A DNA stretch of 64,000 nt from an uncultured Solirubrobacterales bacterium (GCA_963706545.1 OY970161.1:3954105-4018104), one strand, 5' to 3'; numbered from the stretch's first letter, positions 39,502-62,757 are shown. Numbers and translations are program-made. Notes: a model not told the origin generated them from the letters alone.

Positions 39502-39527
39502 TTGAGAGGCTCCTGATCCAGTCGTTG

Positions 39528-39570: not shown

Positions 39571-39584
39571 GTTCCCGGCAAAGT

Positions 39585-44130: not shown

Positions 44131-44131
44131 G

Positions 44132-45424
44132 TCAGCCGGCTACAGCGGCGGCGCGGGCCTCGGTGATCGCGCGGGCGCCGTCCTCCCCGACGAGCAGCTC
44201 GGGGCGCACGGCGCCGCTGCTGGCGAGGTCGAGCGCCGGCAGGCGCCCGGTGGAGGTCAGCGTGACGTCGAGCGCGATCACGGTGCTCTCGCCCCCAAAC
44301 GGGCGGGCCGCTGTGGCGATCACCGTCAGCGAGCCCCCCTCGGCGAGGTTGCGGGCGCCGGCGAGGACCCTGCGTGCCGCGTGGGGGTGCAGGCCGTCGA
44401 GCGAGTCGACCACCACCACCACGTCCCCACCGCGGGCGGCAACGCGCTTGGCGGTGTCCACGACGTGTTCCACGGTCTGACCCTGAAGGTCGGCGGAGGC
44501 CGCGAGGTCGAGCGCCGCGGCGGGCGCCACAGGCCCCTCGCGCCAGGCCGCAATCTCCTCGGGACGGACGCCCGCGAGCACGAGCATCACCTCCAAGCCC
44601 TCGCGCCCGGCCAGAGCACCAAGCAGACGCCGCAGGGTCTCGGTCTTGCCGGAGCGGGCCGCCCCCACGATCGCCACGCGCGAGCCGCGGCCGATCGGGG
44701 TGAGCCATTCGATCGCCTTCAACGTGGGGTCCTCGGCGTCGAGCTCGAGGCGCTCGCTCGGGTAGGCGGCGGCGAGGTCCTCGTAGCGGGTGCCCTCCGC
44801 CACAGACTCCGCGGAGGCGCCGTTGATCGTGTCCACGCGCGCCAGCGAGGGGTAGCGCTCGGACTGGCGCGGCGTGCGCAGCGGGCCGCTCACGCGGTCC
44901 CCGGAGACCAGTTCGCAGCGGCGCACCTGCGCGGCGGAGATGTAGAGGTCCTCGTCAGAGGCCTCCGGCGGAGAGACGCGCAGGAAGGCGGAGCCGTTGC
45001 CGAGCAGCTCGACCACGCCCTCGACGACGCGTTCCTCGCGACTCTCGCCGCCACGGGCGCCCCGCTCTGCAGGGCGTCGGGCGGGCTCCTCCTTGGCCGC
45101 TCGCTGCTCGGCGTCCGGCTCCTGCTCCTCGGCGGACGCTTTGCCCCGGCGTGTACGCGTGGGACGCCGCGGGCGCACGGTGCGCCGGCCGGACTCCGGC
45201 TCCGAGCGGTCGGACTCCTCCCCAGGCTCCTCCGCGGGCGCAGCGGACGCTCCGCGGTCTCCGTCGGCCTGCGTGCCTCCGTCGGCGCCGGAGCGCTCGA
45301 GGATCGCGTCAACCAGCTCCGCCTTGCGCAGACGGCGGAAGCCGTCGAGGCCGAGCTGATCGGCGATCGCGTGCAGGTCTGAGAGCGAGCTCGCGTCAAG
45401 CTCGGAGTGCTCGAGTACAGCCAT
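44132..45424 (-). CDS. Rho-like protein with an intact RNA-binding module and a degenerate ATPase/translocase domain
   Basis: LSDLHAIA N-terminal bundle, EGVVELLGNGSAFLR / DLYIS..QVRR OB-fold, PIGRGSR, GAARSGKT, VRPEE, VVDS, ARNLAEGGSLTVIAT; SD ggggagg. Confidence 0.88.
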   Translation of the reverse strand: MAVLEHSELDASSLSDLHAIADQLGLDGFRRLRKAELVDAILERSGADGGTQADGDRGASAAPAEEPGEESDRSEPESGRRTVRPRRPTRTRRGKASAEEQEPDAEQRAAKEEPARRPAERGARGGESREERVVEGVVELLGNGSAFLRVSPPEASDEDLYISAAQVRRCELVSGDRVSGPLRTPRQSERYPSLARVDTINGASAESVAEGTRYEDLAAAYPSERLELDAEDPTLKAIEWLTPIGRGSRVAIVGAARSGKTETLRRLLGALAGREGLEVMLVLAGVRPEEIAAWREGPVAPAAALDLAASADLQGQTVEHVVDTAKRVAARGGDVVVVVDSLDGLHPHAARRVLAGARNLAEGGSLTVIATAARPFGGESTVIALDVTLTSTGRLPALDLASSGAVRPELLVGEDGARAITEARAAAVAG

Positions 45425-45547
45425 GGTGGTCCTCCCCTTGTCGGTGTGTGTGGGCGGTTGGCGTCCGGTCGCGTTGGCCAGCGGCCGGCACCCGTGAGGC
45501 ATGGGCCTCAGTGCACAGGGCAGCTTACGGCATACCGCACGACGCCC

Positions 45548-46501
45548 TCAGGCCCTGTCGTGTCTCAGTTCCTCGGCGAGGACGAGATCCCTCTGCGGAG
45601 CACCCGCGAGGCCCGACAGCGCGGCGCGCACGGCGAGGAAGTCCGCGGCGGCGGCCACGTCGTGCAAGCGGAAGATGTGCGCGCCGGCGTCGAGCCCGTG
45701 CGCGAGCGCGGCAAGGGTGCCGGCGAGCCGCTCGCGGGGAGGGCGACCGGTGAGCGCGCCGAGGAAGTCCTTGCGGGAGATCGCCCACAGCAGCGGCAGC
45801 CCGAGCTCGTGCAGGCACTCGGCACGGGAGAGCAGCTCGATCGTCTGGGCGGGAGTCTTGGCGAAGTCTGGCCCGGGGTCGAGGATCAACTGCTCGCGCT
45901 CGACGCCGGCGTCCAGCGCCACCGCGACGCGGGCCCGCAGGAAGGCCAGCACCTCCGCGAGCACGTCCGCGTAGAGGTCGGGGTCCTGGCGGCGCACGCG
46001 GGGGGCGGCAGCGGTGTGCATCACCACCAGCGCGGCCCCCGTCTCGGCGCAGACCTCGGCGAGCGCGGGGTCGCGCAGGCCAGAGACGTCGTTGACGATC
46101 CGCGCGCCGGCGGCGATCGCCGCGCGGGCGACGGCGGGCTTGTAGGTGTCCACGGAGACCACCACGGGGTGGACGGTGTCCTCGTGGGAGAGGTCCGAGT
46201 GGGTTCGATCCGAATCCGAGTCGAGCTCCGCGACGACGCGCTCGATCAGCGACACGACGCGCTCGATCTCCTCCTGCGCCGGCACGGGCGGGCGCCCGGT
46301 GGTGGCCGACTCCCCCCCGATGTCGATGATGTCGGCGCCGGCGGCCACAAGCTCCCGCGCGAGGTCCACGCGCTCCTCCAGGCTCCCGTAGCGCCCGCCA
46401 TCGGAGAAGGAGTCGGGCGAAGCGTTGACGACCCCCATCAGCCAGGGGCGCGCGCCGAGCTCGAGCACGCGATCGACTGCGCGCACGCGGTACCGTCTCA
46501 C
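45548..46501 (-). CDS. folP: Dihydropteroate synthase
   Basis: LMGVVNASPDSFSDGG, IIDIGGESA, SVDTYK, ILDPGPDFAK, ISRKDF, FRLHDV. Confidence 0.95.
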   Translation of the reverse strand: MRRYRVRAVDRVLELGARPWLMGVVNASPDSFSDGGRYGSLEERVDLARELVAAGADIIDIGGESATTGRPPVPAQEEIERVVSLIERVVAELDSDSDRTHSDLSHEDTVHPVVVSVDTYKPAVARAAIAAGARIVNDVSGLRDPALAEVCAETGAALVVMHTAAAPRVRRQDPDLYADVLAEVLAFLRARVAVALDAGVEREQLILDPGPDFAKTPAQTIELLSRAECLHELGLPLLWAISRKDFLGALTGRPPRERLAGTLAALAHGLDAGAHIFRLHDVAAAADFLAVRAALSGLAGAPQRDLVLAEELRHDRA

Positions 46502-48180
46502 GCGCCCTGCAGCCCCTCGGCGTGGGCCTCCTCGGCGAAGCGCTCGACCTCCTCGTGCGTGCGCTGCTCGCTCCAGCCCAGCTCGCCCGCGAGCACGTCG
46601 GCGACACGGCTCACCGGGCTGCCCGACCCGCCCTCCCCCGCACCGCCGTCGCTCAGCTCCCGCGCAGCCAGCAGCCCGAGGCGGGTGCGGCGCAGGAGCA
46701 CGTCCCCCACCGAGCGCGCCTGCTCGCGGCGGGCGGCGAGGGCAGCCTCGGCGAGCAGGTCGGGCAGGCCGGGGAGGATCGGCTGGGCCAGCTCACCACG
46801 GGCGCCCGCGAGCGCGAGCACGTCGTGGGCGGCGTACCCGTAGCGGGCGGCCAGCGCCGCGTAGGACTCCTCGGGCACGCCCTCCACGCGCTCGAGCTCC
46901 CCCGCCGCGACGGCCTGCCCGAGCGGGATTTCGTGCGTGCGGCAGGGCGCCTCGCGCGCGTCGCGCTCCACGAGACGGTCCACGGTCAGCTTCGCCATCC
47001 GCCGCCACGTGGTGAGCTTGCCCCCGGTGATTGTGATCATGCCGCTGGAGGTCTCGTACAGCTCGGCCTTGCGGGAGATGTCCACCGACTTGCGCGGGTC
47101 GCCGCTGGAGATCAGCGGCCGCACCCCGGCGTAGGCGCCGGTGAGGTCCTCGGGCCCCAGCGAGGTGGCGAAGAAGGTGTTGACGGCGTCCAGCAGGTAG
47201 GCGACGTCCTCCGCGGAGGGGCGTACGTGGGCGAGGTCGCCCTCGTAGTCGTTGTCGGTCGTGCCCACCAGCGTGCGACCCAACCAGGGCAGTGCGAAGA
47301 TCGAGCGGCCCTCTCCTGCGGGCACAATCGCCCCGCCCACCAGCGGTACGTCCTCGCGGCTGAGTGTGATGTGGGTGCCGCGGCTCGGCCTGATGCGCGG
47401 CAGCTCGGCCTCGTCGTGGAGCTCCTGCGGACGCAGCTCGTCGGCCCACACCCCGGTCGCGTTCACCACGCTCGCGGCGCGTACCACGAACTCCCCTCCC
47501 CCCTCCCGATCCAGCGCCCGCACGCCCTGAGCGCGACCGTCGCCTTCGAGCAGGCCGACGGCCGCCACGCGGTTGGCGCACACCGCCCCGAAGCGCTCGG
47601 CCTCCCCGAGCACGGTCAGGACCAGGCGCACGTCGTCGGTCTGGCAGTCGTAGAAGAGGTAGCCGCCGGTCGGCTCGCGCGGGGCGAGCGCGGGCAGCAG
47701 CTCGAGCACCTCAACGCCTGAGATCATGCGGTGGCGCTCGGGGCTCCACGCGCGCTCCGCTCCCGATGATCCGTCCCCGCGACGTCCGCGCCGGCGTCCT
47801 CGCTCGACCGACATCACGTCGTAGAGGTTCAGCCCCACCCCCATCAGGCGGTCCGGGCGGGCGCCTTCGAAGGCGGGTACCACCAGCGGCAGCGGGTGCA
47901 CGAGGTGCGGCGCGAGCGACACCATCAGCTGGCGCTCCAGCAGCGCCTCGCGCACCAGGCCCAGGTCGAAGTTCTGCAGGTAGCGCAGGCCGCCGTGCAC
48001 GAGCTTGGAGGAGCGGCTGGAGGTCCCCGCGGCGTAGTCGGCACGCTCGAGCAGCGCTACTGAGTAGCCGCGCGTGGAGGCGTCCAGCGCGACCCCCGCG
48101 CCGGTGATGCCGCCGCCGATCACCACCACGTCGAACTCGTTGCCCGCCAGCGCCTGGAGAGCCTGGTCGCGCTCGATCAC
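46498..48180 (-). CDS. glpD: FAD-dependent glycerol-3-phosphate dehydrogenase
   Basis: VIGGGITGAG, GTSSRSSKLVHGGLRYL, VNATGVWAD, AYAGVRPL, ITGGKLTTWR. Confidence 0.93.
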   Translation of the reverse strand: MIERDQALQALAGNEFDVVVIGGGITGAGVALDASTRGYSVALLERADYAAGTSSRSSKLVHGGLRYLQNFDLGLVREALLERQLMVSLAPHLVHPLPLVVPAFEGARPDRLMGVGLNLYDVMSVERGRRRGRRGDGSSGAERAWSPERHRMISGVEVLELLPALAPREPTGGYLFYDCQTDDVRLVLTVLGEAERFGAVCANRVAAVGLLEGDGRAQGVRALDREGGGEFVVRAASVVNATGVWADELRPQELHDEAELPRIRPSRGTHITLSREDVPLVGGAIVPAGEGRSIFALPWLGRTLVGTTDNDYEGDLAHVRPSAEDVAYLLDAVNTFFATSLGPEDLTGAYAGVRPLISSGDPRKSVDISRKAELYETSSGMITITGGKLTTWRRMAKLTVDRLVERDAREAPCRTHEIPLGQAVAAGELERVEGVPEESYAALAARYGYAAHDVLALAGARGELAQPILPGLPDLLAEAALAARREQARSVGDVLLRRTRLGLLAARELSDGGAGEGGSGSPVSRVADVLAGELGWSEQRTHEEVERFAEEAHAEGLQGA

Positions 48181-48272
48181 GACCGCCAGTCTCGCAGAGC
48201 CCCCGGAGGTTCAGGGCCTCGCAGCAGCCGCAGGTGTCAGACCCCGCAGCAGCAGGTGCAGCGGCGGGCGTG

Positions 48273-49563: not shown

Positions 49564-51083
<1,520 letters not shown>

Positions 51084-51087
<4 letters not shown>

Positions 51088-51470
51088 AAGCCTCCTCCCT
51101 CTGCGCCGTCGGCTCCTACGCTCTCTTTGGCAGCACTGCCGCCGCCCCCGGGCTCACCCTCCGCTTTCGCCGGCGGCTTGGGCTTGGACTTGAACATCTC
51201 CAGCATCCTGTCGGTCACGAGGAAGCCACCGACGATGTTGATCGTGCCGAACGCCACCGCGATCACCAGCAGCGCCTTGCTCAAGCCGTCGAGTCCCGGG
51301 AAGCCGAGCAGGATCAGGCCGCCGAGCAGCACGATGCCGTGGATCGCGTTGGTGCCCGACATCAGCGGGGTGTGCAGGGTGTTGGGGACCTTGGAGATCA
51401 CCACGAACCCGATGAAGCCCGCGAGCACGAGGATCGCGAGGTTGGTTGTGAGGACGCTCGCGAGGATCAC
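51084..51470 (-). CDS. pntAb: NAD(P) transhydrogenase alpha subunit, membrane part
   Basis: VPNTLHTPLMSGTNAIHG, INIVGGFLVTDRMLEMF. Confidence 0.95.
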
Positions 51471-52615
51471 GCGCCGGCCCCCCCGCCATTGGCCGCCTCG
51501 ACCGCGGCCCGCGCCCCCGCGTGCACGATCTCACCCTCGCGCACGACGCAGGCGCCCGCGACGATCTCGTCCTCGAAGTCCAGGTGCAGCGCCCCGTCCT
51601 CGCCCACGAGCAGCTCCAGCAGCGCAAGCACGTTGCGCGCGAACAGCGCCGAGGCGTGCTCGGGCAGGGTGGCCGGGAGGTTGAGCGGCGCGAGGATCGA
51701 CACGTCGTGGCGCACCACCGTCTCCCCCGGCTCGGTCAGCTCGCAGTTGCCCCCCGACTCCCCCGCGAGGTCCACCACCACCGACCCCGGCCGCATCCCC
51801 CGCACAGCGTCCTCGGTCACGAGCCGCGGCGCGGGGCGGCCGGGCACGAGCGCAGTGGTGATGACCACGTCGAAGCCCTTGATCGCCTCCGTCAGCGCCT
51901 GCTGCTGGCGGGCGCGCTCCTCCTCGGTGAGCTCGCGCGCGTAGCCCCCCTCGCCGGCGGCCTCCAGCCCGAGGTCGAGCCACTGGGCGCCCAGCGAGCG
52001 CACCTGCTCGGCCACCTCGGGGCGCACGTCGTAGCCGGTCGTGCGCGCCCCCAGGCGTTTCGCGGTCGCCAGCGCCTGCAGACCGGCCACGCCGGCCCCC
52101 AGCACGAGCACCTTCGCCGGCGGGATCGTACCCGCGGCGGTCATCAACATCGGGTAGAAGCGCCCCATCCGCTCAGCTCCCTCCAGCGCCGCGCGGTAGC
52201 CCGCGACGTTGGACTGCGAGGAGAGCGCGTCCATCGACTGCGCGCGGGAGATGCGCGGGATCGCCTCCATCGCGAGCGCCGTCGCCTTCGCGTCTGCGAG
52301 CGCGCGGGTCGTCTGCGGGCTCGTGAGTGGCGCGAGGAAGCCGACCAGCAGCGAGCCCGCGCCGAGCAGGCCCACCTCGGCCGCGGTGGGTGGGGAGATC
52401 GTGACCACCACGTCGGAGCGCCACACCTCCGCGGCGTCGTCGGTCAACTCCGCGCCGGCGTCCGTGAAAGCACCGTCGGGCAGCAGCGCGGCGGCGCCCG
52501 CCCCGCGCTGCACGAGGACCTCGAGGCCCCGGGCCTTCAGCTTGCCGACCACCTCGGGCACGAGCGCCACCCGGTGCTCGCCCGCCGCGGTCTCCTTCGG
52601 AACGCCAACCCGCAT
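51467..52615 (-). CDS. pntAa: NAD(P) transhydrogenase alpha subunit, NAD(H)-binding domain I
   Basis: VGVPKET, RISRAQSMDALSSQ, RFYPMLMTAAGT, GAGVAGL, ITTALVPG. Confidence 0.95.
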   Translation of the reverse strand: MRVGVPKETAAGEHRVALVPEVVGKLKARGLEVLVQRGAGAAALLPDGAFTDAGAELTDDAAEVWRSDVVVTISPPTAAEVGLLGAGSLLVGFLAPLTSPQTTRALADAKATALAMEAIPRISRAQSMDALSSQSNVAGYRAALEGAERMGRFYPMLMTAAGTIPPAKVLVLGAGVAGLQALATAKRLGARTTGYDVRPEVAEQVRSLGAQWLDLGLEAAGEGGYARELTEEERARQQQALTEAIKGFDVVITTALVPGRPAPRLVTEDAVRGMRPGSVVVDLAGESGGNCELTEPGETVVRHDVSILAPLNLPATLPEHASALFARNVLALLELLVGEDGALHLDFEDEIVAGACVVREGEIVHAGARAAVEAANGGGAGA

Positions 52616-52690
52616 TGAGGGGCGGGAACGTATCCGATCGAGCGGACGCGCGCCACCCCGGTGGACCATCTGCGAGACTCAAAGGACCCC

Positions 52691-53263
52691 ATGACCGTCA
52701 ACCTAACCCGCATCTACACCAAGCTTGGGGACTCCGGCGAGACCCACCTCGGGGACATGAGCCGTGTCTCCAAGCTGCACCCCCGGGTGGAGGCGTACGG
52801 CACGGTGGACGAGCTGAGCGCCACGCTCGGGGTGGCGCTCCTGCAGCCGGAACTGCCGGCGCGCTTCGGGGAGTGGCTGCAGCGCGTGCAGAACGACCTG
52901 CTCGATCTCGGCGCCGACCTCTCAGTGCCCGCCGCCGACGGCGCGGAGCGCGAGCGGCTGCGCCTCACCTCCGCTTACACTACGTGGCTGGAGGAGGCGC
53001 TCGACGAGGTCAACGCCAAGCTCCCCCCGCTGCGCTCCTTCGTGATCCCCGGCGGGACCCCCGCGGCCGCGCACCTGCACGTCTGCCGCACCGTGTGTCG
53101 GCGCGCGGAGCGCCGCGCGCTCGCGGTGCAGGACGCGAACCTGGAGGTCGTGCGCTACCTCAACCGGCTCTCCGATCTGCTCTTCGTCCTCGCGCGCGCC
53201 GCCAACGAGGAGGCCGAGTCTCTGTGGGACCCGGGCGCGCACGGGGCGACGCCAGCGCCCTGA
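52691..53263 (+). CDS. pduO: PduO-type cob(I)alamin adenosyltransferase
   Basis: IYTKLGDSGET, EAYGTVDEL, FVIPGG, RTVCRRAER, YLNRLSDLLFVLAR. Confidence 0.95.
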   Translation: MTVNLTRIYTKLGDSGETHLGDMSRVSKLHPRVEAYGTVDELSATLGVALLQPELPARFGEWLQRVQNDLLDLGADLSVPAADGAERERLRLTSAYTTWLEEALDEVNAKLPPLRSFVIPGGTPAAAHLHVCRTVCRRAERRALAVQDANLEVVRYLNRLSDLLFVLARAANEEAESLWDPGAHGATPAP

Positions 53264-53303: not shown

Positions 53304-54038
53304 TCAGCCTGCGTGGGGAGGGTCCACAGACCCGCGGCGCGACGTAAGTGGCCCGGGCTCATCCCAGGCGCGGCCCATCGCGGCCACAGCCAGCGAGACG
53401 CACAGCGCGGCGAGCAGGTAGCCGCCGAGCACGTCGGAGGGCATGTGCCACGCGAGGATCAGCAGCGAGCAGCCGACCGCGACTGCGACCGCACAGCCGA
53501 GCGCCGCGACCAGCGGACGCAGGCTGTGGGGAGCAACGAGCAGCGCACACAGCACGAGCGTCATCGCCGCGGTCGCGTGACCGCTCGGCCAGGACGCGGG
53601 GCCGATCCACTCCCAGCCGACGCTGTCGTGGGGGTGCGCGAGCAGCGGCTTGAGCAGCTCGGCGAGGCCAGGTGTGGCGAGCGCCACCACCGCCACCGCG
53701 AGCGCCACCCGCGGGCGGCGGCGCAGCAGCGCGACGGCGACCAACAGCAGCGCCCATACGGTGTAGAGCAGAGGATCAAGCAGGTGCAGCAGGTCTTCGG
53801 CAAGCGCGTCGACGCCAGGGCGCCGGAGCCGGGTGAAGTCGTTGAGCAGCACCGCGTCGCGTAGGTGGATCGCAGGGACGAGCTCCGCGAGCGTCCACGT
53901 CGCGGCCATCCCGACCAGGCACAGCCCGGCGGCACGGAGCGCCCACGCGCCCCCCGGCCGGCCGGCGAGCTCGCGCGCCGGCCCGCCCGCGCCGTGTGGC
54001 GCAACGCGCGGCGACGCCGTCAAGGGTGCGCTCGACAT
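53304..54038 (-). CDS. PAP2-family phosphatase
   Basis: LKPLL, SWPSGH, WHMPSDVLGG; multiple TM helices. Confidence 0.85.
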   Translation of the reverse strand: MSSAPLTASPRVAPHGAGGPARELAGRPGGAWALRAAGLCLVGMAATWTLAELVPAIHLRDAVLLNDFTRLRRPGVDALAEDLLHLLDPLLYTVWALLLVAVALLRRRPRVALAVAVVALATPGLAELLKPLLAHPHDSVGWEWIGPASWPSGHATAAMTLVLCALLVAPHSLRPLVAALGCAVAVAVGCSLLILAWHMPSDVLGGYLLAALCVSLAVAAMGRAWDEPGPLTSRRGSVDPPHAG

Positions 54039-54085
54039 ACTCGCCAGAGGGTAGAGGTTCGCCGCGCACCCGCGTCGCGGGCCGC

Positions 54086-55741
54086 TCACCCGATTGGCAA
54101 CGGCGCGCGGGCGAGCGCGGTGAGCGCCTGCGCGGTGACCCACACCGGTGACTGGGCGCTCGTGCGGGAGTAACGCACGCTGCCGTTGGGGGCCACAAGG
54201 CTTTCCAGGTAGCCGAGCGGGGAGCGGCTGCCGCGGTTACGGACGGCTTCCACGTCGAGGCCGGCCGCGACAAGGCCCTGGACGGCCCACGCAGTGGACT
54301 GGGCGTTCGATTCGCCTCCCGGCTGCTCAGGGAAGCCGCCGTCGGGGTTCTGGGCGTGCACGAGGAACGCGACCGCGCGCGAGACGCCCGCGCCGCTGTG
54401 GATGCCCGCGTCAAGGAGCCCCTGTAGGGCGGCGGCGGTGTCGTCCACGTCGGAGGAGCCCCCCCGCTCGGCGAAGTTGAAGCCGCCGTCGGAGTCCTGC
54501 TGTCCGGCGATCCACGCGCCCGCAGCGCGCACGGTGGAGTTGCTCGCCGGGTACCCCGCAGCGCGCAGGGCGAAGACGGCGAACGCCGTGAGGTTGACCT
54601 GGTTGGAGAAGGACCCGTCGGCGGCGCGGTATCCCAACAGCCCCGCCAGCAGGTTCTTGCCGGCCAGCGAGGTCACGGGGGCTCCGCAGGCGCGCAGTGC
54701 GAGCATCGTGCGCTCGAGGTCGCCGGGTCCTTCGAGAGTGCCGGCCTGCGCGCGCAGCGCTTCGAGCACCGTGTGGCCGTCGCGGCGCACGCTCTGCGGG
54801 GGGCGCCCGGCGGCCGCTAGGCCCAGCGCCGCCCACGCCGAGTACAGCTCGCTGGGGGGCTGCCCCGCCGCGGCGCCCCACCCCCCGTCGGAGTCCTGCG
54901 CGGAGGCGAGGTAGCCAAGCTCGGGGGAGACGTTCACGCGTGCAGCGGAGGCGGTGGCCACGGCGAAGAGCGGGGTCGAGGAGAGGCCCACGGGAGAGAC
55001 GAACAAGGAGGCCGTCGCCGTGGGAGCGCCGACCGGGCGCAGGACGTCGGCGCGGGCTGACCCGCCGCCCGCCAGCAAAGCGCCGGCAAGACCAAGCGCG
55101 AAGGCCAGCAGCGCGGGCACGCCGGCGCCGGAGGCCTCCCAGCGGACGTCCATGCGGGCACGCATCCGGATCAGCACCCGCGCGAGCTCGGGCGCGAAGG
55201 CGAGGCCAAAGAGGAACGAGGCGCCGGCGTCCACGAGGTTGAAGGAGAGCGCGGTCGCCCCGGCGATGAGCAAGAAGGCGGCGAGGGTGTGGGTGGCGCC
55301 GAGGGTCCACGTGTACACGTTCATGACCTCCGTGGCAGCGAGTGCGGCGAGGCCGCAGGCGAGTGCCAGGGGCAGGCGCCCGAGGCGCCTGCCGGTGAGC
55401 CGCCCCAGGACGGCGCCCGCCACGCCGACCATCCCCCAGGCGGCCATCTGCCAGGGGGTGTAGGGACCCTGGCCGAGCATGACGTTGGAGGCGAGCATCC
55501 CGATGGCCCCCACGGCGAAGCCGGGGAGAGGCCCGAGCACGTAACCGACGACGAGCACGATCGCGGTAATCGGCTTGACTTCAGGGAGCGCCACGAACGC
55601 GTCGCGCCCGAGCGCGGCCACGGCGGCAAGGGTTGCGACGACGGCCACCATCCGTGCGGAGGGCTGGGAGCGCTCGTAGGCGAGCCAGCCGGCGAGCAGC
55701 ACGAGGCCGACGATCAGGAAGGTGGCGAGCGGCCAGCTCAT
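54086..55741 (-). CDS. ECF S component (CbrT-like) fused to a prenyltransferase/squalene-cyclase-like alpha/alpha-barrel domain
   Basis: N-terminus VKPITAIV, GFAVGA, GQGPYTPWQM; C-terminal repeats AQDSDGGWG, QQDSDGGFN, AQNPDGGF. ATG 55741 overlaps the upstream stop. Confidence 0.85.
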   Translation of the reverse strand: MSWPLATFLIVGLVLLAGWLAYERSQPSARMVAVVATLAAVAALGRDAFVALPEVKPITAIVLVVGYVLGPLPGFAVGAIGMLASNVMLGQGPYTPWQMAAWGMVGVAGAVLGRLTGRRLGRLPLALACGLAALAATEVMNVYTWTLGATHTLAAFLLIAGATALSFNLVDAGASFLFGLAFAPELARVLIRMRARMDVRWEASGAGVPALLAFALGLAGALLAGGGSARADVLRPVGAPTATASLFVSPVGLSSTPLFAVATASAARVNVSPELGYLASAQDSDGGWGAAAGQPPSELYSAWAALGLAAAGRPPQSVRRDGHTVLEALRAQAGTLEGPGDLERTMLALRACGAPVTSLAGKNLLAGLLGYRAADGSFSNQVNLTAFAVFALRAAGYPASNSTVRAAGAWIAGQQDSDGGFNFAERGGSSDVDDTAAALQGLLDAGIHSGAGVSRAVAFLVHAQNPDGGFPEQPGGESNAQSTAWAVQGLVAAGLDVEAVRNRGSRSPLGYLESLVAPNGSVRYSRTSAQSPVWVTAQALTALARAPLPIG

Positions 55742-57474
55742 CCGGCCAACTCCAGCACCGCGTGGGCGTCGGCAGCGCGGCGCGCGAGCAACCCCGCGCC
55801 CTCCTCGGGCGCCAGCGCGCCCCCGGCGCCACCGAGGATGCGGGCGGTCTCGGTCGCGAAGTACCACCCGCCGGCGAGCAGCTCCGCGGCGGGGCCGTCG
55901 GCGATCACGCGCCCGTCGGCGAGCAGCACCGCGCGGACGGCGCACGCGCACGCGAACTCGGGGTCGTGGGTGGCGACCACCACCGCCTGACCGCGGGCGG
56001 CGCGGCGGCGCAACTCCTCAGCGAGCAGGGCCTTGGCGTGGCGGTCCATCCCACGGGTGGGCTCGTCGAGCGCGAGCACCGCGGGCTCCTCGCCCCCGTC
56101 GGTGACGATGGCGAGCGCGAGCCGCTGGCGCTCCCCGCCGGAGAGGTCGCGGGGGTTGCGCGCCCCCTCCTCCGCGAGGCCGGCTAGCGCAAGCGCGCGA
56201 GGGGAAGCCTCGCGGTCGAGGCGGTCGTGGAGGAAGTAGTCAGAGGGGTTCTGCAGCAGCAGCGCGACGCGCCCCGCCCGCTCGACGCGCCCGCGGGTGG
56301 GCTCCAGCAGCCCGGCTGCGTGGCGCAACAGCGTGGACTTGCCGGCGCCGTTGCGTCCCATCAGGGCGACGGTCTCGCCGGGCTCCACGCGCAGCTCGGC
56401 GCCGCGCAAGATCGCGGGGCCGCGGTGGAGCTCGTGCCACACGCCGCGCAGGTGGAGCGCCGGAGCGGGGCGGGTGTCTCGGCGGAGCAGGCGGCGGCCG
56501 AGGGACGGCACGGCGGAAGGCCCACTGGGAGCGACGGGTCCCGGGGCGGACGTGGGTGTGGCCGACGCAGGTGTGGCCCCCTGCCTGCGGTTGTCCACTG
56601 CGGTCGCTACGACGGCAGGGGGCGCCTGGGAGCATACTCCCTCAGCAGACAACAGTCCGCGGTCACGCAGCGTGGCGCGCGCCTGCTTGACACCCACCGG
56701 CGGGGGGTCGAGCCCGGCGAGCGCGAACAGACGGGCGCCGGGGGTCTGCAGTGCGGGCTCCTCGCGCCCGGCCCACTCCAGGAACGCGCGGGGGTCGCCG
56801 TCGTGCACGAGGCGCCCCCCGCGCAGAGCGAGCACGCGGTCGGCGGCCGGCAGGCAGCGCTCGAGGCGGTGCTCGGCGAGCAGCACGGTGACGTCCCACT
56901 CCTGGTTGAGGCGGCGCAGCAGCCCGAGCAGCTCGTCCCCGGCGACAGGGTCGAGCTGGGAGGTGGGCTCGTCGAGCAGCAGCACCGGCGGGCGGCCCGC
57001 GAGCGCGGCGCCGAGCGCGACGCGCTGCTGCTCCCCACCGGAGAGCGTGTGCGCGGGGCGGTCCAGCAGGTGGTCCACACCGAGCGCGAGCGCCGCCTCC
57101 TCGACCCCGCGCGCGACCGCCGCCGCGCCGTGTCCGCGAGTCTCCAGCGCAAGCGCGAGCTCAGCGCGCACGGAGCTCATCACGAGCTGCGTCTCGGGGT
57201 CCTGGAAGAGCGCGCCCGCAAGCGTCCCGAGGCGCGCGGGCCCGTGCTCGCGCGTGTCGAGGCCCGCGAGCTCCACGCGCCCCGCGAAGCGCCCGCCGTG
57301 GAAGTGCGGCACCAGCCCACAGGCAGCGCGCAACAGCGTGGACTTGCCCTCCCCGGAGAGGCCGGCGAGCAGGCAGAACTCGCCCGCCGCCACCTCGAAG
57401 GACACGTCCTCCAGAGCAGGACGGTCCGCGGCGGGGTAGTGGTACGTGACGTCGTGAAAAGAGAGGACGTTCAT
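55738..57474 (-). CDS. ECF ATP-binding protein with two fused ABC domains
   Basis: GLSGEGKST / LSGGEQQR / LDEPT, then GRNGAGKST / LSGGERQR / LDEPTRGMD. Confidence 0.93.
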   Translation of the reverse strand: MNVLSFHDVTYHYPAADRPALEDVSFEVAAGEFCLLAGLSGEGKSTLLRAACGLVPHFHGGRFAGRVELAGLDTREHGPARLGTLAGALFQDPETQLVMSSVRAELALALETRGHGAAAVARGVEEAALALGVDHLLDRPAHTLSGGEQQRVALGAALAGRPPVLLLDEPTSQLDPVAGDELLGLLRRLNQEWDVTVLLAEHRLERCLPAADRVLALRGGRLVHDGDPRAFLEWAGREEPALQTPGARLFALAGLDPPPVGVKQARATLRDRGLLSAEGVCSQAPPAVVATAVDNRRQGATPASATPTSAPGPVAPSGPSAVPSLGRRLLRRDTRPAPALHLRGVWHELHRGPAILRGAELRVEPGETVALMGRNGAGKSTLLRHAAGLLEPTRGRVERAGRVALLLQNPSDYFLHDRLDREASPRALALAGLAEEGARNPRDLSGGERQRLALAIVTDGGEEPAVLALDEPTRGMDRHAKALLAEELRRRAARGQAVVVATHDPEFACACAVRAVLLADGRVIADGPAAELLAGGWYFATETARILGGAGGALAPEEGAGLLARRAADAHAVLELAG

Positions 57475-57568
57475 GAGAGATCGTCCGCGCGGGTGAGTGC
57501 CGCACCGAGGTGGTGTGGGCGGGGCGTCCTACCCCGCCACCCTGCGTCGCGCTTCGGCCCAAGCGTCT

Positions 57569-58504
57569 TCACAGCTCGACCCCCCGGCGGTCACAGAACG
57601 GCAGCAGCACCGCGAGCACGAGCGCCGCGCAGAGCGCGCACAGGCCGAGGCCGACGGGGGCGTGCACCAGCGGGTATGCGGTGAACGAGGCGGCGCCACC
57701 AAGCCGCGCGAGCAGCGCGAGCGCGAGAACGGCCGCCCCGGAGGCGGCGAAGGCGAGGTCGTGGCGCGACCACGGCCGCTGCACGCGCGGGGCCCGGGGG
57801 GCAGCGGCGAAGCCGCGGAGCTCGAGCGTGGCGGCGACGTCCATCGCGCGGTCGAGTGAGCCGGCGAGCACCGCGCTGAGCAGTGCGACGCGCCCACGGG
57901 CGCCGCCGGCCGCCCGCCGAACGGCCCCACCGCTGGGCGATCCTCCCGCGGGCCCACCGCCGGGGCGGGTGCGCTGCGCCTCGGCGAGGCGGTGGGCGTC
58001 GGCGGCGAGCAGGGGAATCATGCGCACCGCAAGCGAGGCGGTGAGCGCCGAGCGGAAGGAGAGGCGGCGGAAGATCCGCAGCAGCGCGTCGGGGTCCACC
58101 GCAAGGCTCGCGAGCGCGGAGGCGAGGATCAGGATCGTGACCTTCAGCGCGACCACCGCGCCGAACACGAGCGCCTCGACCGTCAGGTCGCCCTGTCCGA
58201 AGGGGCCGAGGTCACCGAGCCGTGCCAACACGGTGAGGCCCTCGCGGGAGACGAGCACGTTGACCGCGACGATCGGCAGCCCCACGATCAGCGCCACGCG
58301 CAGGGCGCGCGTGAGCTCACGGCCGACCCCCGCCCCCCAGCCGGCGCCGAGGATCGCGAGCACGAGCACGGCGAGCGCGAGAGGGTGGTAGAGCAGCAGC
58401 GTGGCCGCTGTGAGCGCGAGCGCCCACAGCGCAGCGACCCCGGCACGTGTCGCGTGCAGCGGGCTCGCGAGGGGGCGGTACAGGAGCAGCCCGGCGCGGT
58501 TCAT
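57569..58504 (-). CDS. ECF transmembrane T component (CbiQ/EcfT family)
   Basis: PLHATRA, TM helices, C-terminal A..LELRGF coupling-helix motif. Confidence 0.88.
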   Translation of the reverse strand: MNRAGLLLYRPLASPLHATRAGVAALWALALTAATLLLYHPLALAVLVLAILGAGWGAGVGRELTRALRVALIVGLPIVAVNVLVSREGLTVLARLGDLGPFGQGDLTVEALVFGAVVALKVTILILASALASLAVDPDALLRIFRRLSFRSALTASLAVRMIPLLAADAHRLAEAQRTRPGGGPAGGSPSGGAVRRAAGGARGRVALLSAVLAGSLDRAMDVAATLELRGFAAAPRAPRVQRPWSRHDLAFAASGAAVLALALLARLGGAASFTAYPLVHAPVGLGLCALCAALVLAVLLPFCDRRGVEL

Positions 58505-58623
58505 GGGACGGAGCTCGGTTGGGGCAGCACGGCGCGGTTCACGGGCTCGGGCTCGGCTGGGGCAGGGGCAGCACGGCGCGGTTCACGGGCTCGGGCTCGG
58601 CTGGGGCAGGGGCAGCACGGCGC
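58501..58623. repeat. 44 bp tandem duplication at the junction between the lipoprotein gene and ecfT
   Basis: Unit ggggcagcacggcgcggttcacgggctcgggctcggctggggca at 58521-58564 and 58565-58608, then a partial third copy. Confidence 0.9.
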
Positions 58624-59539
58624 CCGTGGCAGTCACCGCGACGGCGAAACGGTCGCGCAGCGCCGCTTCGTCGAGGGCGTGCGCGGCCAGGGCCACGCCG
58701 GCGGCGTCGGTGCCGGTGAGGACCCATTCGGGGTCCCCTTCGCCGGCGCGGGTGGCGGCGATCAGTCCGGCGCTGCCTGTGAGTGTGCGCACGGTGGCAC
58801 CCGAGGCGTCGAGCAGCGCGAGCGCGCGCCCCGAGGGGGCTACGCGCGCGTACACCCCGCTCGCGCGGGGGCCGCGTTCGAGCGACTGCGAGTTGAAGTC
58901 GCCACGCACCTGCGGCCACGTGCCGACGAGCAGGCGCAGCGTGTCGGGCTCCCCGGCGGGCGCCGGCGCGGCGAGCGCAAAGCGCACCCCCGCGGCACGC
59001 AGGTGGGCGCGAACCGTGAGGCAGGGGTTGCCTTCGGGCTGCGTGCATTCCACGCGAACCGGCTGGCGCAGCCCTTCGAGCCCGTACAGGAACGGCTCGG
59101 GGTAGGAGCCGACGACGGCCGGTATTTCATCGGTCTGGCTCCAGTCGTGCAGGTCCCACCACACGCGGTCCCCCGGGTGCACGTTCGTCTCGGCCGCGCC
59201 CTTGGACGCCTGCACGCCGTTGACGTAGTAAAACCAGTCGGCCGGTTCCCCGCCTTCGGAGCCGCCGGAGTGCCCCGCGATGCTCTCCACGAAACCGCCG
59301 CCGTAGCGGGTGCTGACGGCGGCGTTGCGCTCCAGCAGGCTCATCACCGTCTCCTGGCCCTGCACGCGGGGGGCGCGCAGGGCGAGCACGGGCTGCACCC
59401 CGAAGTCGCGCGTGACGTCCAGGCGCACCCCGCCGGGCGTGGGCCCCGCACCGAGGCCGCAGCCGGCGAGCAGGACGGCGGCCGGTGCGGCGAGCCACAC
59501 GCGCCACCGACCGCCGCCCCGGTGTCTCCTACTTGACAT
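58583..59539 (-). CDS. DUF4430 (transcobalamin beta-domain-like) lipoprotein
   Basis: VLLAGC lipobox; TVMSLL..., YGGGFVESIAG, DWFYYVNGV...G......PGDRVWW. Confidence 0.8.
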   Translation of the reverse strand: MSSRRHRGGGRWRVWLAAPAAVLLAGCGLGAGPTPGGVRLDVTRDFGVQPVLALRAPRVQGQETVMSLLERNAAVSTRYGGGFVESIAGHSGGSEGGEPADWFYYVNGVQASKGAAETNVHPGDRVWWDLHDWSQTDEIPAVVGSYPEPFLYGLEGLRQPVRVECTQPEGNPCLTVRAHLRAAGVRFALAAPAPAGEPDTLRLLVGTWPQVRGDFNSQSLERGPRASGVYARVAPSGRALALLDASGATVRTLTGSAGLIAATRAGEGDPEWVLTGTDAAGVALAAHALDEAALRDRFAVAVTATGAVLPLPQPSPSP

Positions 59540-60812
59540 AGAAGACGACGTGACTCACTCCGTCCGCGAGCTGTGTGGCGTGACCCGCATCGTCCAAGGC
59601 CTCGACGTCGTAGACGTACCGACCCGCGGGCAGCCGGGCCGGGAGCAGGTAGCTGAACGAGGTCGTGTCGGCCACGTCGAAGAAGCGTGTCGTGTGGCAG
59701 CCGGCACGCACGAAGGCTCCCCTGCGCCCGCTGAACGCGAAGCAGCGGTGGTGGACGCTGCGCGTGAGCGCGATGCGCACCTCGTGGAGCGTGTCCCCGG
59801 CGGGGATTTCGACGCTTCCTCCGAGGATGCGAGGAGCCGCGCGACGGGAGTAGACGCGACCACTCACGACTCCGCCCGCACGGGCCACCTCCGGAGGCGG
59901 CGGAGGCCCGGTGCTGGGGCCCAGTGGACCGCCGCAGGAGGACGTTGCCGCACAGAGGACGCACGTGGACGCCGTTGCACAGGCGACCGTGGTTCCGCAG
60001 GTGCCGTCGTTGCCGTTGTGGACGCACACGACCAAGCCACCCGAGCGCACTGATTCGGCCTGTGTGGCCTTGAGCGTCACGGTCCCCGTGTGGGCGAGCG
60101 CGATCGTGGCGTTGCCGTTCGCGTCGGTCGTGGGGCTGGCGGGGATCGGGGTCGTGACGCCCGCGAACACTTCGCCGATCGCGGCGCCCGCGATCGGCTG
60201 GCCGGTCTGCCCGTCGACGACGTGCACGGAGAAGGGCGTGCCGGCGTCGACGCTCGCGGGACCGGTCAGGCTCAGCAGGTGGTGCAGGTTGAAGTAGTTG
60301 TAGGCCCACAGCACTTCGCTGCCGGGGGCGAGTGCGATCTGGCAGCCACCCACGGGCGCGGTCGTGTCGTTGACTGCATAGCCCCACGAGTCGTAGGGGG
60401 GTGACGTTTCGTTTTCGTCTGAGCCGACCTGAGTGACGAGGAAGTCCCCCGGATTTTCGTTTTCTTTGGCGCCCGAGCCGAACCATTCGGCGTTGAAGGC
60501 AAGCCCGTTCGCACGCGCCGCGTCGCGCAGCGCTGTGGTCGGCGTACCGCTGGCGCTGCCACCGTTGGCTTCGCGCCCACCGAAGCCGTTTTCCGAGTAG
60601 TCGCACGGGTGGGGACCTTTGCTGGAGAGCGTTTCGAACGTTTCGCCCTGGGTCGCGATTTCTCCTTCGAAGAGCGTCTCGGTCGGACCCTCGACGCGCA
60701 GCTTGACTGTGACCGGCGCCGCAAGCGCGGTCGCGCACGAGACCAGCACTGCAAGGAGACCAATGAGGACGCCGGCGAGCGTCGGGCGGGTACGAGGAGC
60801 GATGACGAGCAT
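59529..60812 (-). CDS. Secreted protein with a DUF4430-like N-terminal domain and Ig-like C-terminal domains
   Basis: Signal peptide, V.LRVEG..ETLFEG, SWGYAVND..A.VGGC...L.PG.EVLWAY; first gene after the riboswitch. Confidence 0.7.
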   Translation of the reverse strand: MLVIAPRTRPTLAGVLIGLLAVLVSCATALAAPVTVKLRVEGPTETLFEGEIATQGETFETLSSKGPHPCDYSENGFGGREANGGSASGTPTTALRDAARANGLAFNAEWFGSGAKENENPGDFLVTQVGSDENETSPPYDSWGYAVNDTTAPVGGCQIALAPGSEVLWAYNYFNLHHLLSLTGPASVDAGTPFSVHVVDGQTGQPIAGAAIGEVFAGVTTPIPASPTTDANGNATIALAHTGTVTLKATQAESVRSGGLVVCVHNGNDGTCGTTVACATASTCVLCAATSSCGGPLGPSTGPPPPPEVARAGGVVSGRVYSRRAAPRILGGSVEIPAGDTLHEVRIALTRSVHHRCFAFSGRRGAFVRAGCHTTRFFDVADTTSFSYLLPARLPAGRYVYDVEALDDAGHATQLADGVSHVVFYVK

Positions 60813-60854
60813 GGAGCCAACCCCTTTCCACGAGGGCTTGTGGGCTTGCGGCCG

Positions 60855-61020
60855 GAGGCAGGTCTCCTGGCTCCCGGGCCTACCCCTCGCGCCTTCCCGA
60901 TGGCCGACGGCCGATCAGTGGCTCGCGCTTCGACGCGCGTAGCGGGGGGCATCCCCGGTCACAGTGGCGGGTCCGCGCCGGACTCTCACCGGCTTCCCTC
61001 GACCACCGACCGTATGAACG
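60855..61020 (-). ncRNA. Cobalamin riboswitch
   Basis: Minus strand reads agggaagccggtgagagtccggcgcggacccgccactgt ... gccactg ... gggaagg ... gagccaggagacctgcc (B12 box). Confidence 0.95.
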
Positions 61021-61029
61021 GGACAGATA

Positions 61030-62274
61030 CTACCGCCCGACGGCGTCCAAGTCGCTGTCCACGTCGGCCAGCGCGCTGCGAGCGGCGGCGTCGAGCACCG
61101 GGCGCTCGACCATCAGCCTGCGGGCGCGGTCGAGATCGTCCGAGCGCCCGACGGTCAGCGCAGCGACGAGGCGCCCGTCCTTCACGTACCACGTGGTGAA
61201 ACTGCCCTCGTCCATCGAGCCGCGCACGATCTCCTCATCCCACTCGCGCGCCGGGCCAACGTACTCGAGTTCCGCCCAGTCGCCGAGCACGGAGAAGAAG
61301 TAGGGAACCGTCTCGTGGGGGACGTCGCGGCCGAGCATGTTCAGCGCGGCGGTCTTGCCGTGGTTGAAGGCGACGTCCCAGTGCTCGATCCGCAGCGGCC
61401 CACCGTGCAGCGGGGAGTCGTACTCGCAGATGTCCCCCGCTGCGAACACCCCGGGGGCGGAGCTCTGCAGGCACGCGGAGCAGCGCACTCCCCCGCCCTG
61501 CCCCAGCTCCAGGCCGGCGCCGCGCGCGAGCTGCACGTCGGGGGTCACGCCCGCGCCGATCACGACCGCTTCGGCCGGGAGCTCCAGGCCGTTCTTGGTG
61601 ACGACCTTCGCCACCCGGCCCTCGCCCTCGAAGCGCTCCAGCTCGTCGCGCCCGTGGATCGTGACGCCGTGCGCTTCCAGCAGCTCCTGGAAGAAGCGCC
61701 CGCTCGCGGAGCCGAAGCCGCGTTCGAGCGTGAGCTCCTCCTGCATCACGACCGTGCACCGCTTGCCCACCATCGTCAGCGAGGCCGCCACCTCGCAGCC
61801 GATGTAGGAGCCGCCGATCAACACCACGTGCTCGGCGTCCGCCACACCCGCGCGGATCGCGTCGGCGTTGCCGAGCGTGCGCAGGTAGTGGATCTGCTCC
61901 AGCTCGCACCCCGGCACGTTCAGCCGCCGCACGTTCGCCCCGGTGGCCAACAGCGCCTGGCCGAACTCGAGCTCCTCCTTGGTCGAGAGCTTGGCGGTGC
62001 GCGCCCCGGCGTCGAGGGCGGTGACGCTGGTGCGGGTCAGCAGCTCCACCTCCTGCTCGGACCACCACTTCTGCGGACGGAAGAACGCCTCGCTGCGCTC
62101 CTCCGCGCCGCGCAGGTAGCCCTTTGAGCAGTTCGGGCGGTTGTACGGCGGGTCGGGCTCGCGCCCCACGACCACCACGCTCCCCTCCGCGCCCTCCTCG
62201 CGCAGCCACCGTGCGCAGTTGGCGCTCGCGAGCCCTCCTCCGATCAGCAGGTAGTCGACCTTGCGGGCAGCCAT
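61030..62274 (-). CDS. FAD-dependent NAD(P)H:ferredoxin reductase-like oxidoreductase
   Basis: IGGGLAS, PPYNRPNCSKGYL, LLATGA, IGGSYIGCEVA, FAAGDI, RIEHWDVA, PYFFS. Confidence 0.9.
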   Translation of the reverse strand: MAARKVDYLLIGGGLASANCARWLREEGAEGSVVVVGREPDPPYNRPNCSKGYLRGAEERSEAFFRPQKWWSEQEVELLTRTSVTALDAGARTAKLSTKEELEFGQALLATGANVRRLNVPGCELEQIHYLRTLGNADAIRAGVADAEHVVLIGGSYIGCEVAASLTMVGKRCTVVMQEELTLERGFGSASGRFFQELLEAHGVTIHGRDELERFEGEGRVAKVVTKNGLELPAEAVVIGAGVTPDVQLARGAGLELGQGGGVRCSACLQSSAPGVFAAGDICEYDSPLHGGPLRIEHWDVAFNHGKTAALNMLGRDVPHETVPYFFSVLGDWAELEYVGPAREWDEEIVRGSMDEGSFTTWYVKDGRLVAALTVGRSDDLDRARRLMVERPVLDAAARSALADVDSDLDAVGR

Positions 62275-62290: not shown

Positions 62291-62563
62291 CTACGCGAAA
62301 GCCGGGACGCGCAGAGTCAGCGCCGAGGCTGCTCCGGACCCCCGCTGGCCGATCTCCGATCGGTCGGCTGGGTCGCTGTCGTGGTAGAGCAGCCACGCCT
62401 CCAGCAACCCCTCCGCAAGCTCATCCAACGTTGCTCCGGATGCGAACAGCCCCGGGCAGCTCGGCACCTCCGCCCAGAGCGAACCGTCCTCCTCATGAAC
62501 CAGCGCCTGAATCTCGATCTGCTCTTCCACGAAACCCAACTTTCGTCTGATGCTCTTCATCAT
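62291..62563 (-). CDS. hicB: HicB-like antitoxin (RNase H-like domain, no obvious DNA-binding domain)
   Basis: VHEEDGSLWAEVPSCPGLFASGATLDEL; ATGA overlap with hicA. Confidence 0.85.
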   Translation of the reverse strand: MMKSIRRKLGFVEEQIEIQALVHEEDGSLWAEVPSCPGLFASGATLDELAEGLLEAWLLYHDSDPADRSEIGQRGSGAASALTLRVPAFA

Positions 62564-62757
62564 AGACCTGCCTCTCTCAGGATCGCCGAGGTCAACCTGC
62601 GCCCATAATCGCCACCCCGGTGCTTCGGCAAGGTGATGGGCCGATGTCCGGGCTTCTCCATCTTCACCACATGCTTGCCGCCGCGGGTCGCAGTCCAGCC
62701 ATGGGCTTCCAGGAGCTTTCTGGCCGACTTCTGGCTCAGCGGAGTTGATCTGCCCAT
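62560..62757 (-). CDS. hicA: HicA-like mRNA interferase toxin
   Basis: LLEAHGW..TRGGKHV..EKPG...ITLPKH....L..IL..AG. A TGACGGCGTCA palindrome at 62757-62767 abuts the start. Confidence 0.88.
   Translation of the reverse strand: MGRSTPLSQKSARKLLEAHGWTATRGGKHVVKMEKPGHRPITLPKHRGGDYGRRLTSAILREAGL

Follow-up and report, generated by a model that had tools for sequence, protein, structure and literature searches.

Energy-coupling factor (ECF) transporters capture their substrate with a membrane-embedded S component and need no external binding protein. The animal carriers transcobalamin, intrinsic factor and haptocorrin hold cobalamin between an alpha6/alpha6 barrel and a DUF4430-type beta-domain. 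When the two domains of transcobalamin are expressed separately, they co-elute only with cobalamin, and the beta-domain by itself binds cobalamin and cobinamide (PMC5599065). Two bacterial systems are close to the one described here. ECF-CbrT transports cobalamin and cobinamide, with no competition by hemin (PMC5997447). In Lactobacillus sakei, lsa1836-1840 encode an ECF S component, an AA' ATPase, a T component and two secreted proteins, Lsa1839 and Lsa1840; the authors described these two as transcobalamin beta-like and alpha-like, the latter also prenyltransferase-like, modelled them as a heterodimer, proposed that they scavenge the ligand for the S component, and argued that the substrate is heme (bioRxiv 10.1101/864751). 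We analysed a 64-kb stretch of DNA from an uncultured Solirubrobacterales bacterium (GCA_963706545.1, OY970161.1:3954105-4018104; referred to as the window, with all coordinates given in it). On its minus strand, at positions 54086-61020, lies an operon with a B12 riboswitch, for which an earlier note had proposed a split transcobalamin-like capture system feeding an ECF transporter. The operon very probably encodes a corrinoid ECF importer, in which an S component is fused to an alpha6/alpha6 barrel, and the barrel and two surface proteins, g1 and g2, are likely functional accessories of this importer. The system looks like an exception to the rule that ECF transporters have no extracytoplasmic binding protein.

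The operon starts with a cobalamin riboswitch aptamer (60840..61022, minus strand). According to the Rfam search, it was a complete RF00174 aptamer (77.4 bits, E=2.5e-17, model positions 1-189 of 189), above the gathering threshold of 31.5 bits, and it was the sole Rfam family detected across the window. Its 3' end was found 27 nucleotides upstream of the g1 ATG, with a Shine-Dalgarno-like GGAAAGGGG run in the gap. At the level of sequence, the operon is thus placed under riboswitch control; a promoter and terminator scan and the folding of the 3' region of the riboswitch were uninformative in DNA of 70% GC or more. The genes that follow, all on the minus strand, encode g1, a secreted DUF4430-like/immunoglobulin (Ig)-like protein of 427 residues (59529..60812); g2, a DUF4430 lipoprotein of 318 residues (58583..59539); EcfT, the transmembrane coupling component of the CbiQ family (57569..58504; Pfam CbiQ, 60 bits, and a partial match to NCBIfam ECF_T_CbiQ); a fused EcfA-A' ATPase with two ABC domains (55738..57474); and the fusion of the S component with the barrel. 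The ATPase matched Pfam ABC_tran twice (E=2.5e-44), as well as NCBIfam ECF_ATPase_1 and ECF_ATPase_2 with E values of about 1e-70 and scores below the equivalog cut-offs. A CbiQ-family EcfT, two EcfA-type ABC domains and an S component are therefore encoded together, as in group I ECF transporters. All the elements listed in the earlier note were present, namely the riboswitch, two DUF4430-type proteins, EcfT, EcfA-A', the S component-barrel fusion and a nearby pduO.

The open reading frame of the fusion, as called mechanically, covered 54086..55951, and its first 70 codons overlapped ecfA. Translation almost certainly begins at the ATG at 55741, whose overlap with the ecfA stop codon reads ATGA. 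The resulting protein of 551 residues agrees in length with its database homologues, most of which have 510-580 residues. In the AlphaFold 2 (AF2) model of the fusion, with a mean predicted local distance difference test (pLDDT) score of 78, the S domain (residues 1-225, 55067..55741) displayed a CbrT-like core of six helices flanked by two extra transmembrane helices, one N-terminal (residues 3-25) and one (residues 207-223) after an Arg-rich loop assigned to the cytoplasm, RVLIRMRARMDVRWE. The family profile of the S domain had a single match in the PDB, CbrT of ECF-CbrT (6FNP_A, E=9.7e-6), with residues 34-193 of the query aligned to residues 14-173 of CbrT; the Pfam families ECF-ribofla_trS and ECF_trnsprt matched weakly. 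The description of this S component as CbrT-like was therefore confirmed, with the correction that two extra transmembrane helices flank the CbrT-like core. A cobalt/nickel transporter of the CbiMNQO type was also considered and rejected, as the S domain was CbrT-like rather than CbiM-like and there was no CbiN.

The N and C termini of S components are both located in the cytoplasm. Because the fusion has an extra C-terminal transmembrane helix after the Arg-rich loop, the positive-inside rule predicts an external barrel that shares its compartment with g1 and g2. According to this predicted topology, about 45 flexible residues would tether the extracytoplasmic barrel to the last transmembrane helix. 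The tether (residues 224-267, 54941..55072, minus strand) was of low complexity and predicted to be disordered, with a pLDDT below 50 for residues 222-267. In many homologues (for example, the representatives P0253, P0260, P0262, P0263, P0281 and P0291), the barrel was followed by a long Gly/Pro/Ser-rich region of low complexity and a C-terminal transmembrane anchor, which would fix both ends of the barrel to the membrane in these proteins.

The barrel itself (residues 268-551 plus the stop codon, 54086..54940, minus strand) was modelled as 12 helices forming an alpha6/alpha6 barrel over residues 268-545, with a pLDDT above 90. Three canonical QxxDGG repeats were found (AQDSDGGW, QQDSDGGF and AQNPDGGF), as the earlier note had reported, and two more were degenerate. 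Pfam assigned the domain to SQHop_cyclase_C (1.7e-11) and Prenyltrans (4e-9), and its sequence matches in the PDB were drimenyl-diphosphate synthase SsDMS, squalene-hopene cyclase and the beta subunit of Rab geranylgeranyltransferase. A DVDDT motif was located at residues 431-435 (54437-54451). The conservation of the barrel was examined in 95 diverse homologues with 31-66% identity, taken from a library of representatives at 50% identity. D433, in the middle of the motif, was kept in 82 of them (86%), and T435 in 81%; D431 and D434 were kept in 66% and 62%, respectively, with S, T, R or M as the substitutes at these flanking Asp positions. ERT343-345, SNAQST478-483 and P532/W534 were likewise among the most conserved positions. 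In the AF2 model, these conserved, mostly polar residues were gathered at one mouth of the barrel, where the six inner helices begin. A prenyltransferase was rejected, since there was neither a Zn triad nor a gene for an alpha subunit; the single Cys of the barrel, C352, is outside any D-x-C motif. The best NCBIfam match of the barrel was NF053823, the SCO2321 family membrane protein (E=1.4e-25), whose score of 90.1 bits came from partial stretches and is far below the cut-off of 300, so the barrel was not assigned to this family. The only paper found to mention SCO2321 was unrelated, and a literature search on the "squalene oxidase repeat" with cobalamin and on the 8PAJ and 8PAK structures returned nothing relevant.

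Of the two surface proteins, g2 carries the clearer DUF4430 domain. It has a conserved lipobox (LLAGC, LLAG-C27) and a DUF4430 domain at residues 63-131 (59147-59353; Pfam, 60.1 bits, E=2.8e-16), which was matched in 39 of 39 orthologues. The lipobox, DWFYYVNG and WWDxHDW were invariant. The same Pfam model also matched the beta-domain of transcobalamin (residues 352-424, E from 4e-4 to 8e-6), which upholds the resemblance between DUF4430 and this beta-domain claimed in the earlier note; the link is likewise stated in PMC4350170. The rest of g2 (residues 140-318, 58583-59122) formed a conserved C-terminal domain whose fold was not recognised, with two invariant Cys residues (C165 and C173) and the motifs GPRASGVYAR and WVxTGTD; apart from a weak TruB_C match in 8 of 39 members, it had no relative in the PDB or Pfam. 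The g1 protein has a cleavable N-terminal signal sequence ending in ALA/AP, followed by an alpha/beta N-domain (residues 34-175), an Ig-like domain (residues 178-265), a disordered linker and a C-terminal beta-sandwich (residues 311-427). Its AF2 model (mean pLDDT, 78) showed an N-domain with the order beta-beta-alpha-beta-beta-beta-beta and then two Ig-like/beta-sandwich domains. With this model, Foldseek returned only antibody/Ig-type matches, the two Ig-like domains swamping the small N-domain, and Pfam also found CarboxypepD_reg and Big_1 (Ig-like). DUF4430 was matched by 56 of 75 members of the g1 family (best E=8e-7), which weakly supports a DUF4430-like nature of g1. A beta-domain of the type found in the transcobalamin family is thus present in g2 and was detected only below threshold in g1.

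Relatives of the fusion were numerous, with more than 4,000 in the database and 484 clusters at 50% identity with E<=1e-30. When one genome per species was scanned, at least 499 genomes encoded a relative. Synteny was examined in the best 80 of these at least 499, all from Solirubrobacterales. All the loci with enough flanking sequence (about 69 of 80) had the same order of aptamer, g1, g2, EcfT, EcfA-A' and S component-barrel fusion. Over the 80 loci, the riboswitch was found in 69, g1 in 68, g2 in 70, EcfT in 71 and EcfA-A' in 77, and a homologous aptamer was upstream of g1 in 69 of the 69 related loci with flanking sequence. The most variable member was g1, with 30-97% identity. Since the operon is conserved in related loci, its architecture is not a chance juxtaposition; as all 80 loci come from a single order, their shared synteny taken by itself argues only weakly for a functional link. 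Some relatives had an extra gene between g1 and g2, as in L031 (4346-5536, plus strand), and a similar gap between the two genes was seen in L035, L036, L037, L045, L047, L048, L052, L070 and L071. In the secreted product of the extra L031 gene, a CarboxypepD_reg Ig-like domain was found and, by eye, a DUF4430-like W-x-Y-x-V...V-L-W-F-W pattern that Pfam did not detect; this product could be a third beta-like protein.

Evidence beyond conserved synteny came from other arrangements of the same domains. On a metagenome contig with 72% GC (L082), a cobalamin riboswitch (76.8 bits) was found directly upstream of a gene for one composite protein, which consisted of a signal sequence, a DUF4430 domain (25.9 bits, above the cut-off), an Ig-like domain and a barrel; genes for EcfT, EcfAA' and a separate S component followed. 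A tblastn search of plasmids with the barrel gave nothing at 1e-8 and, at 1e-3, only partial matches over the DVDDT repeats, one of which led to an operon on a plasmid of Streptomyces sp. SAT1 (L081). There, a cobalamin riboswitch (41.8 bits) preceded the gene for a 911-residue surface protein with two barrels, and the operon continued with a 313-residue anchored protein, EcfT, EcfAA' and an S component, with metE adjoining. One lineage therefore joins the barrel to the S component and another joins it to DUF4430, always in an ECF operon with a B12 riboswitch, which constitutes a Rosetta-stone argument for physical cooperation. The barrel, the DUF4430-like domains and the S component form one conserved module whose domains are fused differently across lineages.

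Two further proteins or domains were noticed in these lineages. Divergent from the riboswitch operon of SAT1, a gene on the minus strand (L081, 1872-3284) encodes a secreted protein of 470 residues with an N-terminal barrel and a C-terminal domain, the only Pfam match of which was a sub-threshold DUF4430 (E=0.058). Here, one bacterial polypeptide would have its domains in the order seen in transcobalamin. In addition, an extracytoplasmic domain of about 150 residues with no Pfam match and the pattern VAVDF-x-HWGG...GC...AYWSYW...WxF/IGG was present in ECF operons controlled by a riboswitch. In SAT1 (L081, 3889-7562, plus strand), one copy was fused to the two barrels and another was alone with a transmembrane anchor. 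It was also found on the metagenome contig (L082, 3135-4070, plus strand) and in the representative P0336, where it is fused to a barrel. This domain may be another corrinoid-binding module.

The genes around the operon were also examined. A PAP2-family membrane protein (53304..54143, minus strand; Pfam PAP2, E=1.8e-10; likely start, the ATG at 54038) is encoded directly downstream of the fusion on the same strand. It retains the PSGH and HxxxD motifs, and two conserved arginines of the motifs are replaced (KPLLAHPH and SLLILAWHMPSD). The PAP2 gene was found downstream in 75 of 80 loci, and where insertions separated it from the ECF genes (L006, L013 and L051), it stayed beside pduO; its membership of the operon is uncertain. 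In a single gene call from a metagenome-assembled genome (P0241, 816 residues, contig_1905), the S component, the barrel and PAP2 were fused, which may be due to an assembly frameshift. The pduO gene, conserved in 75 of 80 loci, is a convergent neighbour (52661..53263, plus strand) encoding a PduO-type ATP:cob(I)alamin adenosyltransferase (Pfam Cob_adeno_trans, 207.6 bits; NCBIfam PduO_Nterm, 178.8 bits, above the cut-off). On the other side, a gene for a ferredoxin-NAD(+) reductase-like flavoprotein (61030-62274, minus strand) ends 8 nucleotides before the aptamer and was upstream in 65 of 80 loci. Reductases of the ferredoxin-NAD(+) type are able to donate electrons for the reduction of cobalamin ahead of adenosylation. 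We speculate that the reductase, the uptake operon and PduO may form one salvage neighbourhood. Farther upstream, a hicA toxin gene (65 residues; Pfam HicA_toxin, E=1.2e-8) and a gene for a HicB/UPF0150-like antitoxin (90 residues) were found (62291-62757, minus strand). The other genes of the window, at 49564-52669 (minus strand) and 29600-48200, have housekeeping functions, including the pntA, pntA-4TM and pntB transhydrogenase genes, glycerol-3-phosphate dehydrogenase, folP, rho, an amino-acid permease fused to Usp and a cell-division cluster with mraW, PBP and Mur ligases. Because these flanking genes are housekeeping genes, the B12 operon belongs to the conserved core chromosome rather than to an island. 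No gene for B12 synthesis or for terpene synthesis was found in the window.

The explanation that we favour, held as a whole with a little under even confidence, is a riboswitch-repressed group I ECF corrinoid importer equipped with a DUF4430/barrel capture module. In a B12-replete cell, the riboswitch would switch the importer off. When the importer is expressed, the DUF4430 domain of g2, and probably that of g1, would capture a corrinoid, and the loaded domain would dock on the polar mouth of the barrel, formed by ERT343-345, DVDDT431-435, SNAQST478-483 and PVW532-534. The complex, tethered directly above the CbrT-like pocket, would then pass its ligand to the S domain for ATP-driven import, after which PduO would adenosylate the imported corrinoid. 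We infer the binding of corrinoids by g1 and g2, the contact between the barrel and the beta-domain and the hand-over to the S domain. That the barrel, g1 and g2 form a two-part clamp in the style of transcobalamin is a possibility that we put forward tentatively. As the earlier note suggested, having two beta-domains might conceivably broaden the range of corrinoids. The most specific version, in which the DUF4430 domain of the lipoprotein and the prenyltransferase-type barrel tethered to the S component would close on cobalamin above the pocket, as a modular, ligand-assembled clamp of a widespread actinobacterial ECF-CbrT, is a rather doubtful conjecture.

Several results weigh against such a clamp, and many of them concern the kinship of the barrel. 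Pfam divides transcobalamin into PF01122 (Cobalamin_bind) for the alpha-domain and DUF4430 for the beta-domain, and PF01122 had no match in the barrel at E<=0.01. The top 50 Foldseek matches of the barrel in the PDB (E<=1e-3) were all class II terpene cyclases or beta subunits of prenyltransferases, the best being the monodomain/class II cyclases 8PAJ, 8PAK and MstE with 16-21% identity, and transcobalamin, intrinsic factor and haptocorrin were not among these 50. For a direct comparison, the human TCN2 sequence was checked against PDB 7QBF (100% identity), and the mammalian family was gathered. Alignment of the barrel family with the transcobalamin family by hhalign gave a probability of 1-2% and an E of 0.03-0.05, which is not significant. 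The local match paired AQNPDGGF...SNAQSTAWAVQGL of the barrel with AQTPEGHFGNVYSTPLALQFL of transcobalamin, and a relaxed local alignment was colinear over 227 columns and placed D433 on D176 of transcobalamin (E=0.03, probability of 1.6%), which was not counted as evidence of homology. These pairings may hint at a very remote common ancestry, without statistical support. By fold class, the barrel and the transcobalamin alpha-domain belong together; the kin that can be demonstrated for the barrel are terpene cyclases and prenyltransferases. On the beta side, the DUF4430 match of g1 (residues 116-172, 60297-60467) reached 22.6 bits, compared with a Pfam cut-off of 23.8, and when g1 and g2 were compared with hhalign, the expected W-x-Y-x-V-N...G-D-x-V-W core was aligned with a probability of only 2.5%. 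The family profile of g2, which was too narrow, found no transcobalamin in the PDB, and hhalign of g1 and g2 against mammalian transcobalamin, again with narrow profiles, gave no meaningful alignment. Furthermore, because CbrT alone binds cobalamin with a nanomolar Kd (PMC5997447), accessory binders are not obviously needed, and in the sole experimental precedent, that of L. sakei, heme was the reported import substrate (bioRxiv 10.1101/864751). From the split capture system proposed earlier, the B12-regulated CbrT-type importer, the DUF4430 beta-like proteins, the separation of the two halves on different chains and the barrel tethered outside are retained, whereas a specific kinship of the barrel to transcobalamin had to be given up.

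The lack of significant similarity between the barrel and the transcobalamin alpha-domain would suit an importer whose accessories form no clamp. In that case, the barrel would serve only as a docking platform, a spacer or a cell-envelope anchor, and g2, perhaps with g1, would alone be a high-affinity capture or storage protein, functionally like BtuG or BtuF. The isolated beta-domain of transcobalamin does bind cobalamin and cobinamide (PMC5599065), and the low-complexity linker and C-terminal membrane anchor that follow the barrel in many homologues are what a surface scaffold would have. However, the residues conserved across barrels with 31-66% identity cluster at the canonical ligand-binding mouth and not on the outer surface, and the repeated fusion of the barrel to an S component or a DUF4430-like domain suggests close physical cooperation. 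We consider an importer without a clamp unlikely. The conserved mouth could also belong to an enzyme, with the barrel acting as an extracellular, monodomain acid catalyst like the class II terpene cyclases, either on corrinoids, for instance to remodel cobamides ahead of import, or on a polyprenyl lipid in concert with the PAP2 phosphatase encoded next door. SDVDDT of the barrel (residues 430-435) is identical, residue for residue, to the aligned SDVDDT of SsDMS, the middle Asp of which is mutated in the D303E (entry reading SDVEDT) and D303A structures. Because D433 aligns with D303 of SsDMS, it is the counterpart of the catalytic general acid. The earlier note had stated that a barrel retaining the active site and activity of a terpene cyclase or prenyltransferase would refute its proposal; judged by sequence only, half of this was found, the motif being kept. 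The nature of the best Foldseek matches, the retention of D433 in 86% of the diverse homologues, the PAP2 gene directly downstream and the gene call that fuses PAP2 to the barrel protein agree with an enzyme as well. On the other hand, the domain is predicted to be outside the cell, away from the pools of prenyl diphosphate, and the window has no terpene-synthesis genes. The operon is under B12 control in three lineages, conservation of the Asp residues on either side of D433 reaches only 62-66%, and polar residues, not aromatic ones, make up the conserved mouth. Where insertions intervene, PAP2 tracks pduO and not the ECF genes, and the lone PAP2 fusion comes from a metagenome-assembled genome and may be an assembly frameshift. 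An enzymatic function is therefore kept in consideration because the DxDD-type motif is retained, at a low probability.

In L. sakei, deletion of the operon, which has separate alpha-like and beta-like secreted proteins with an ECF module, lowered heme uptake (bioRxiv 10.1101/864751), so heme or another tetrapyrrole might be imported instead of a corrinoid. Against this, cobalamin riboswitches are found upstream of the operon in the window and in two other lineages, pduO is adjacent in the window and metE in Streptomyces, and the nearest relative of the S domain, CbrT, shows no competition by hemin. Heme or another tetrapyrrole in place of a corrinoid appears highly improbable.

A split, transcobalamin-like ECF capture system is not a new idea, as it has already been proposed for L. 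sakei. Two features of the system in the window are new, a barrel linked covalently to the S component and explicit control by a riboswitch; our literature search found no paper describing the S component-barrel fusion, its riboswitch-controlled actinobacterial versions or the SCO2321 family. A clamp, if it is real, would break the rule that ECF transporters have no extracytoplasmic binding protein. It would further suggest that the transcobalamin/intrinsic factor architecture arose in bacteria, from a terpene-cyclase-like barrel and a DUF4430 domain, and that the old DxDD position (D433) was re-used for contact with the ligand. If the parts cooperate, they would account for the ability of soil actinobacteria, which are abundant, to compete for scarce corrinoids and would offer a simple two-piece system for studying the ligand-induced assembly of a clamp, with a bearing on the source of the animal B12 carriers. 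If the barrel is catalytic instead, the locus would encode a vitamin transporter with an extracellular enzyme attached to it, an unusual combination.

Compared with the L. sakei system, in which the barrel is a free protein, there is one beta-like protein and a riboswitch is not mentioned in the paper, the operon in the window has a tethered barrel, two surface proteins and a B12 riboswitch. The animal carriers are soluble single chains, with the alpha-domain before the beta-domain and an alpha-domain of the PF01122 family, whereas the window system has separate polypeptides, a membrane-tethered barrel and no PF01122; alpha and beta domains in one soluble chain are thus not found here. The class II cyclases (SsDMS, 7XQ4; squalene-hopene cyclase, 1SQC; MstE, 6SBB; 8PAJ/8PAK) and the beta subunits of prenyltransferases share with the barrel the QxxDGG-type repeats and a DxDDTA-like motif at the start of the equivalent inner helix. 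The barrel of the window differs in being a single domain tethered to a transporter outside the cell, in a B12 context, without a Zn triad or an alpha subunit; it has the DxDD motif, but at its predicted extracytoplasmic position it would lack access to prenyl substrates at the cytoplasm or membrane face, and its gene context is not a terpenoid one. The SCO2321 family (NF053823) consists of actinobacterial membrane proteins that contain a barrel and whose name gives no function, and the barrel of the window scored below its cut-off. Bacteroides BtuG (PMC6143338) is a functional analogue, a riboswitch-linked surface lipoprotein that captures B12 for a transporter, which has an unrelated fold and hands its ligand to an outer-membrane TonB-dependent transporter. 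ECF-CbrT of Lactobacillus delbrueckii (PDB 6FNP; PMC5997447) likewise consists of EcfT, two ATPase domains and a CbrT-type S component, and to this plan the system in the window adds two extra transmembrane helices, a C-terminal barrel, fused ATPases and two DUF4430-type surface proteins, all in a dedicated module controlled by a riboswitch.

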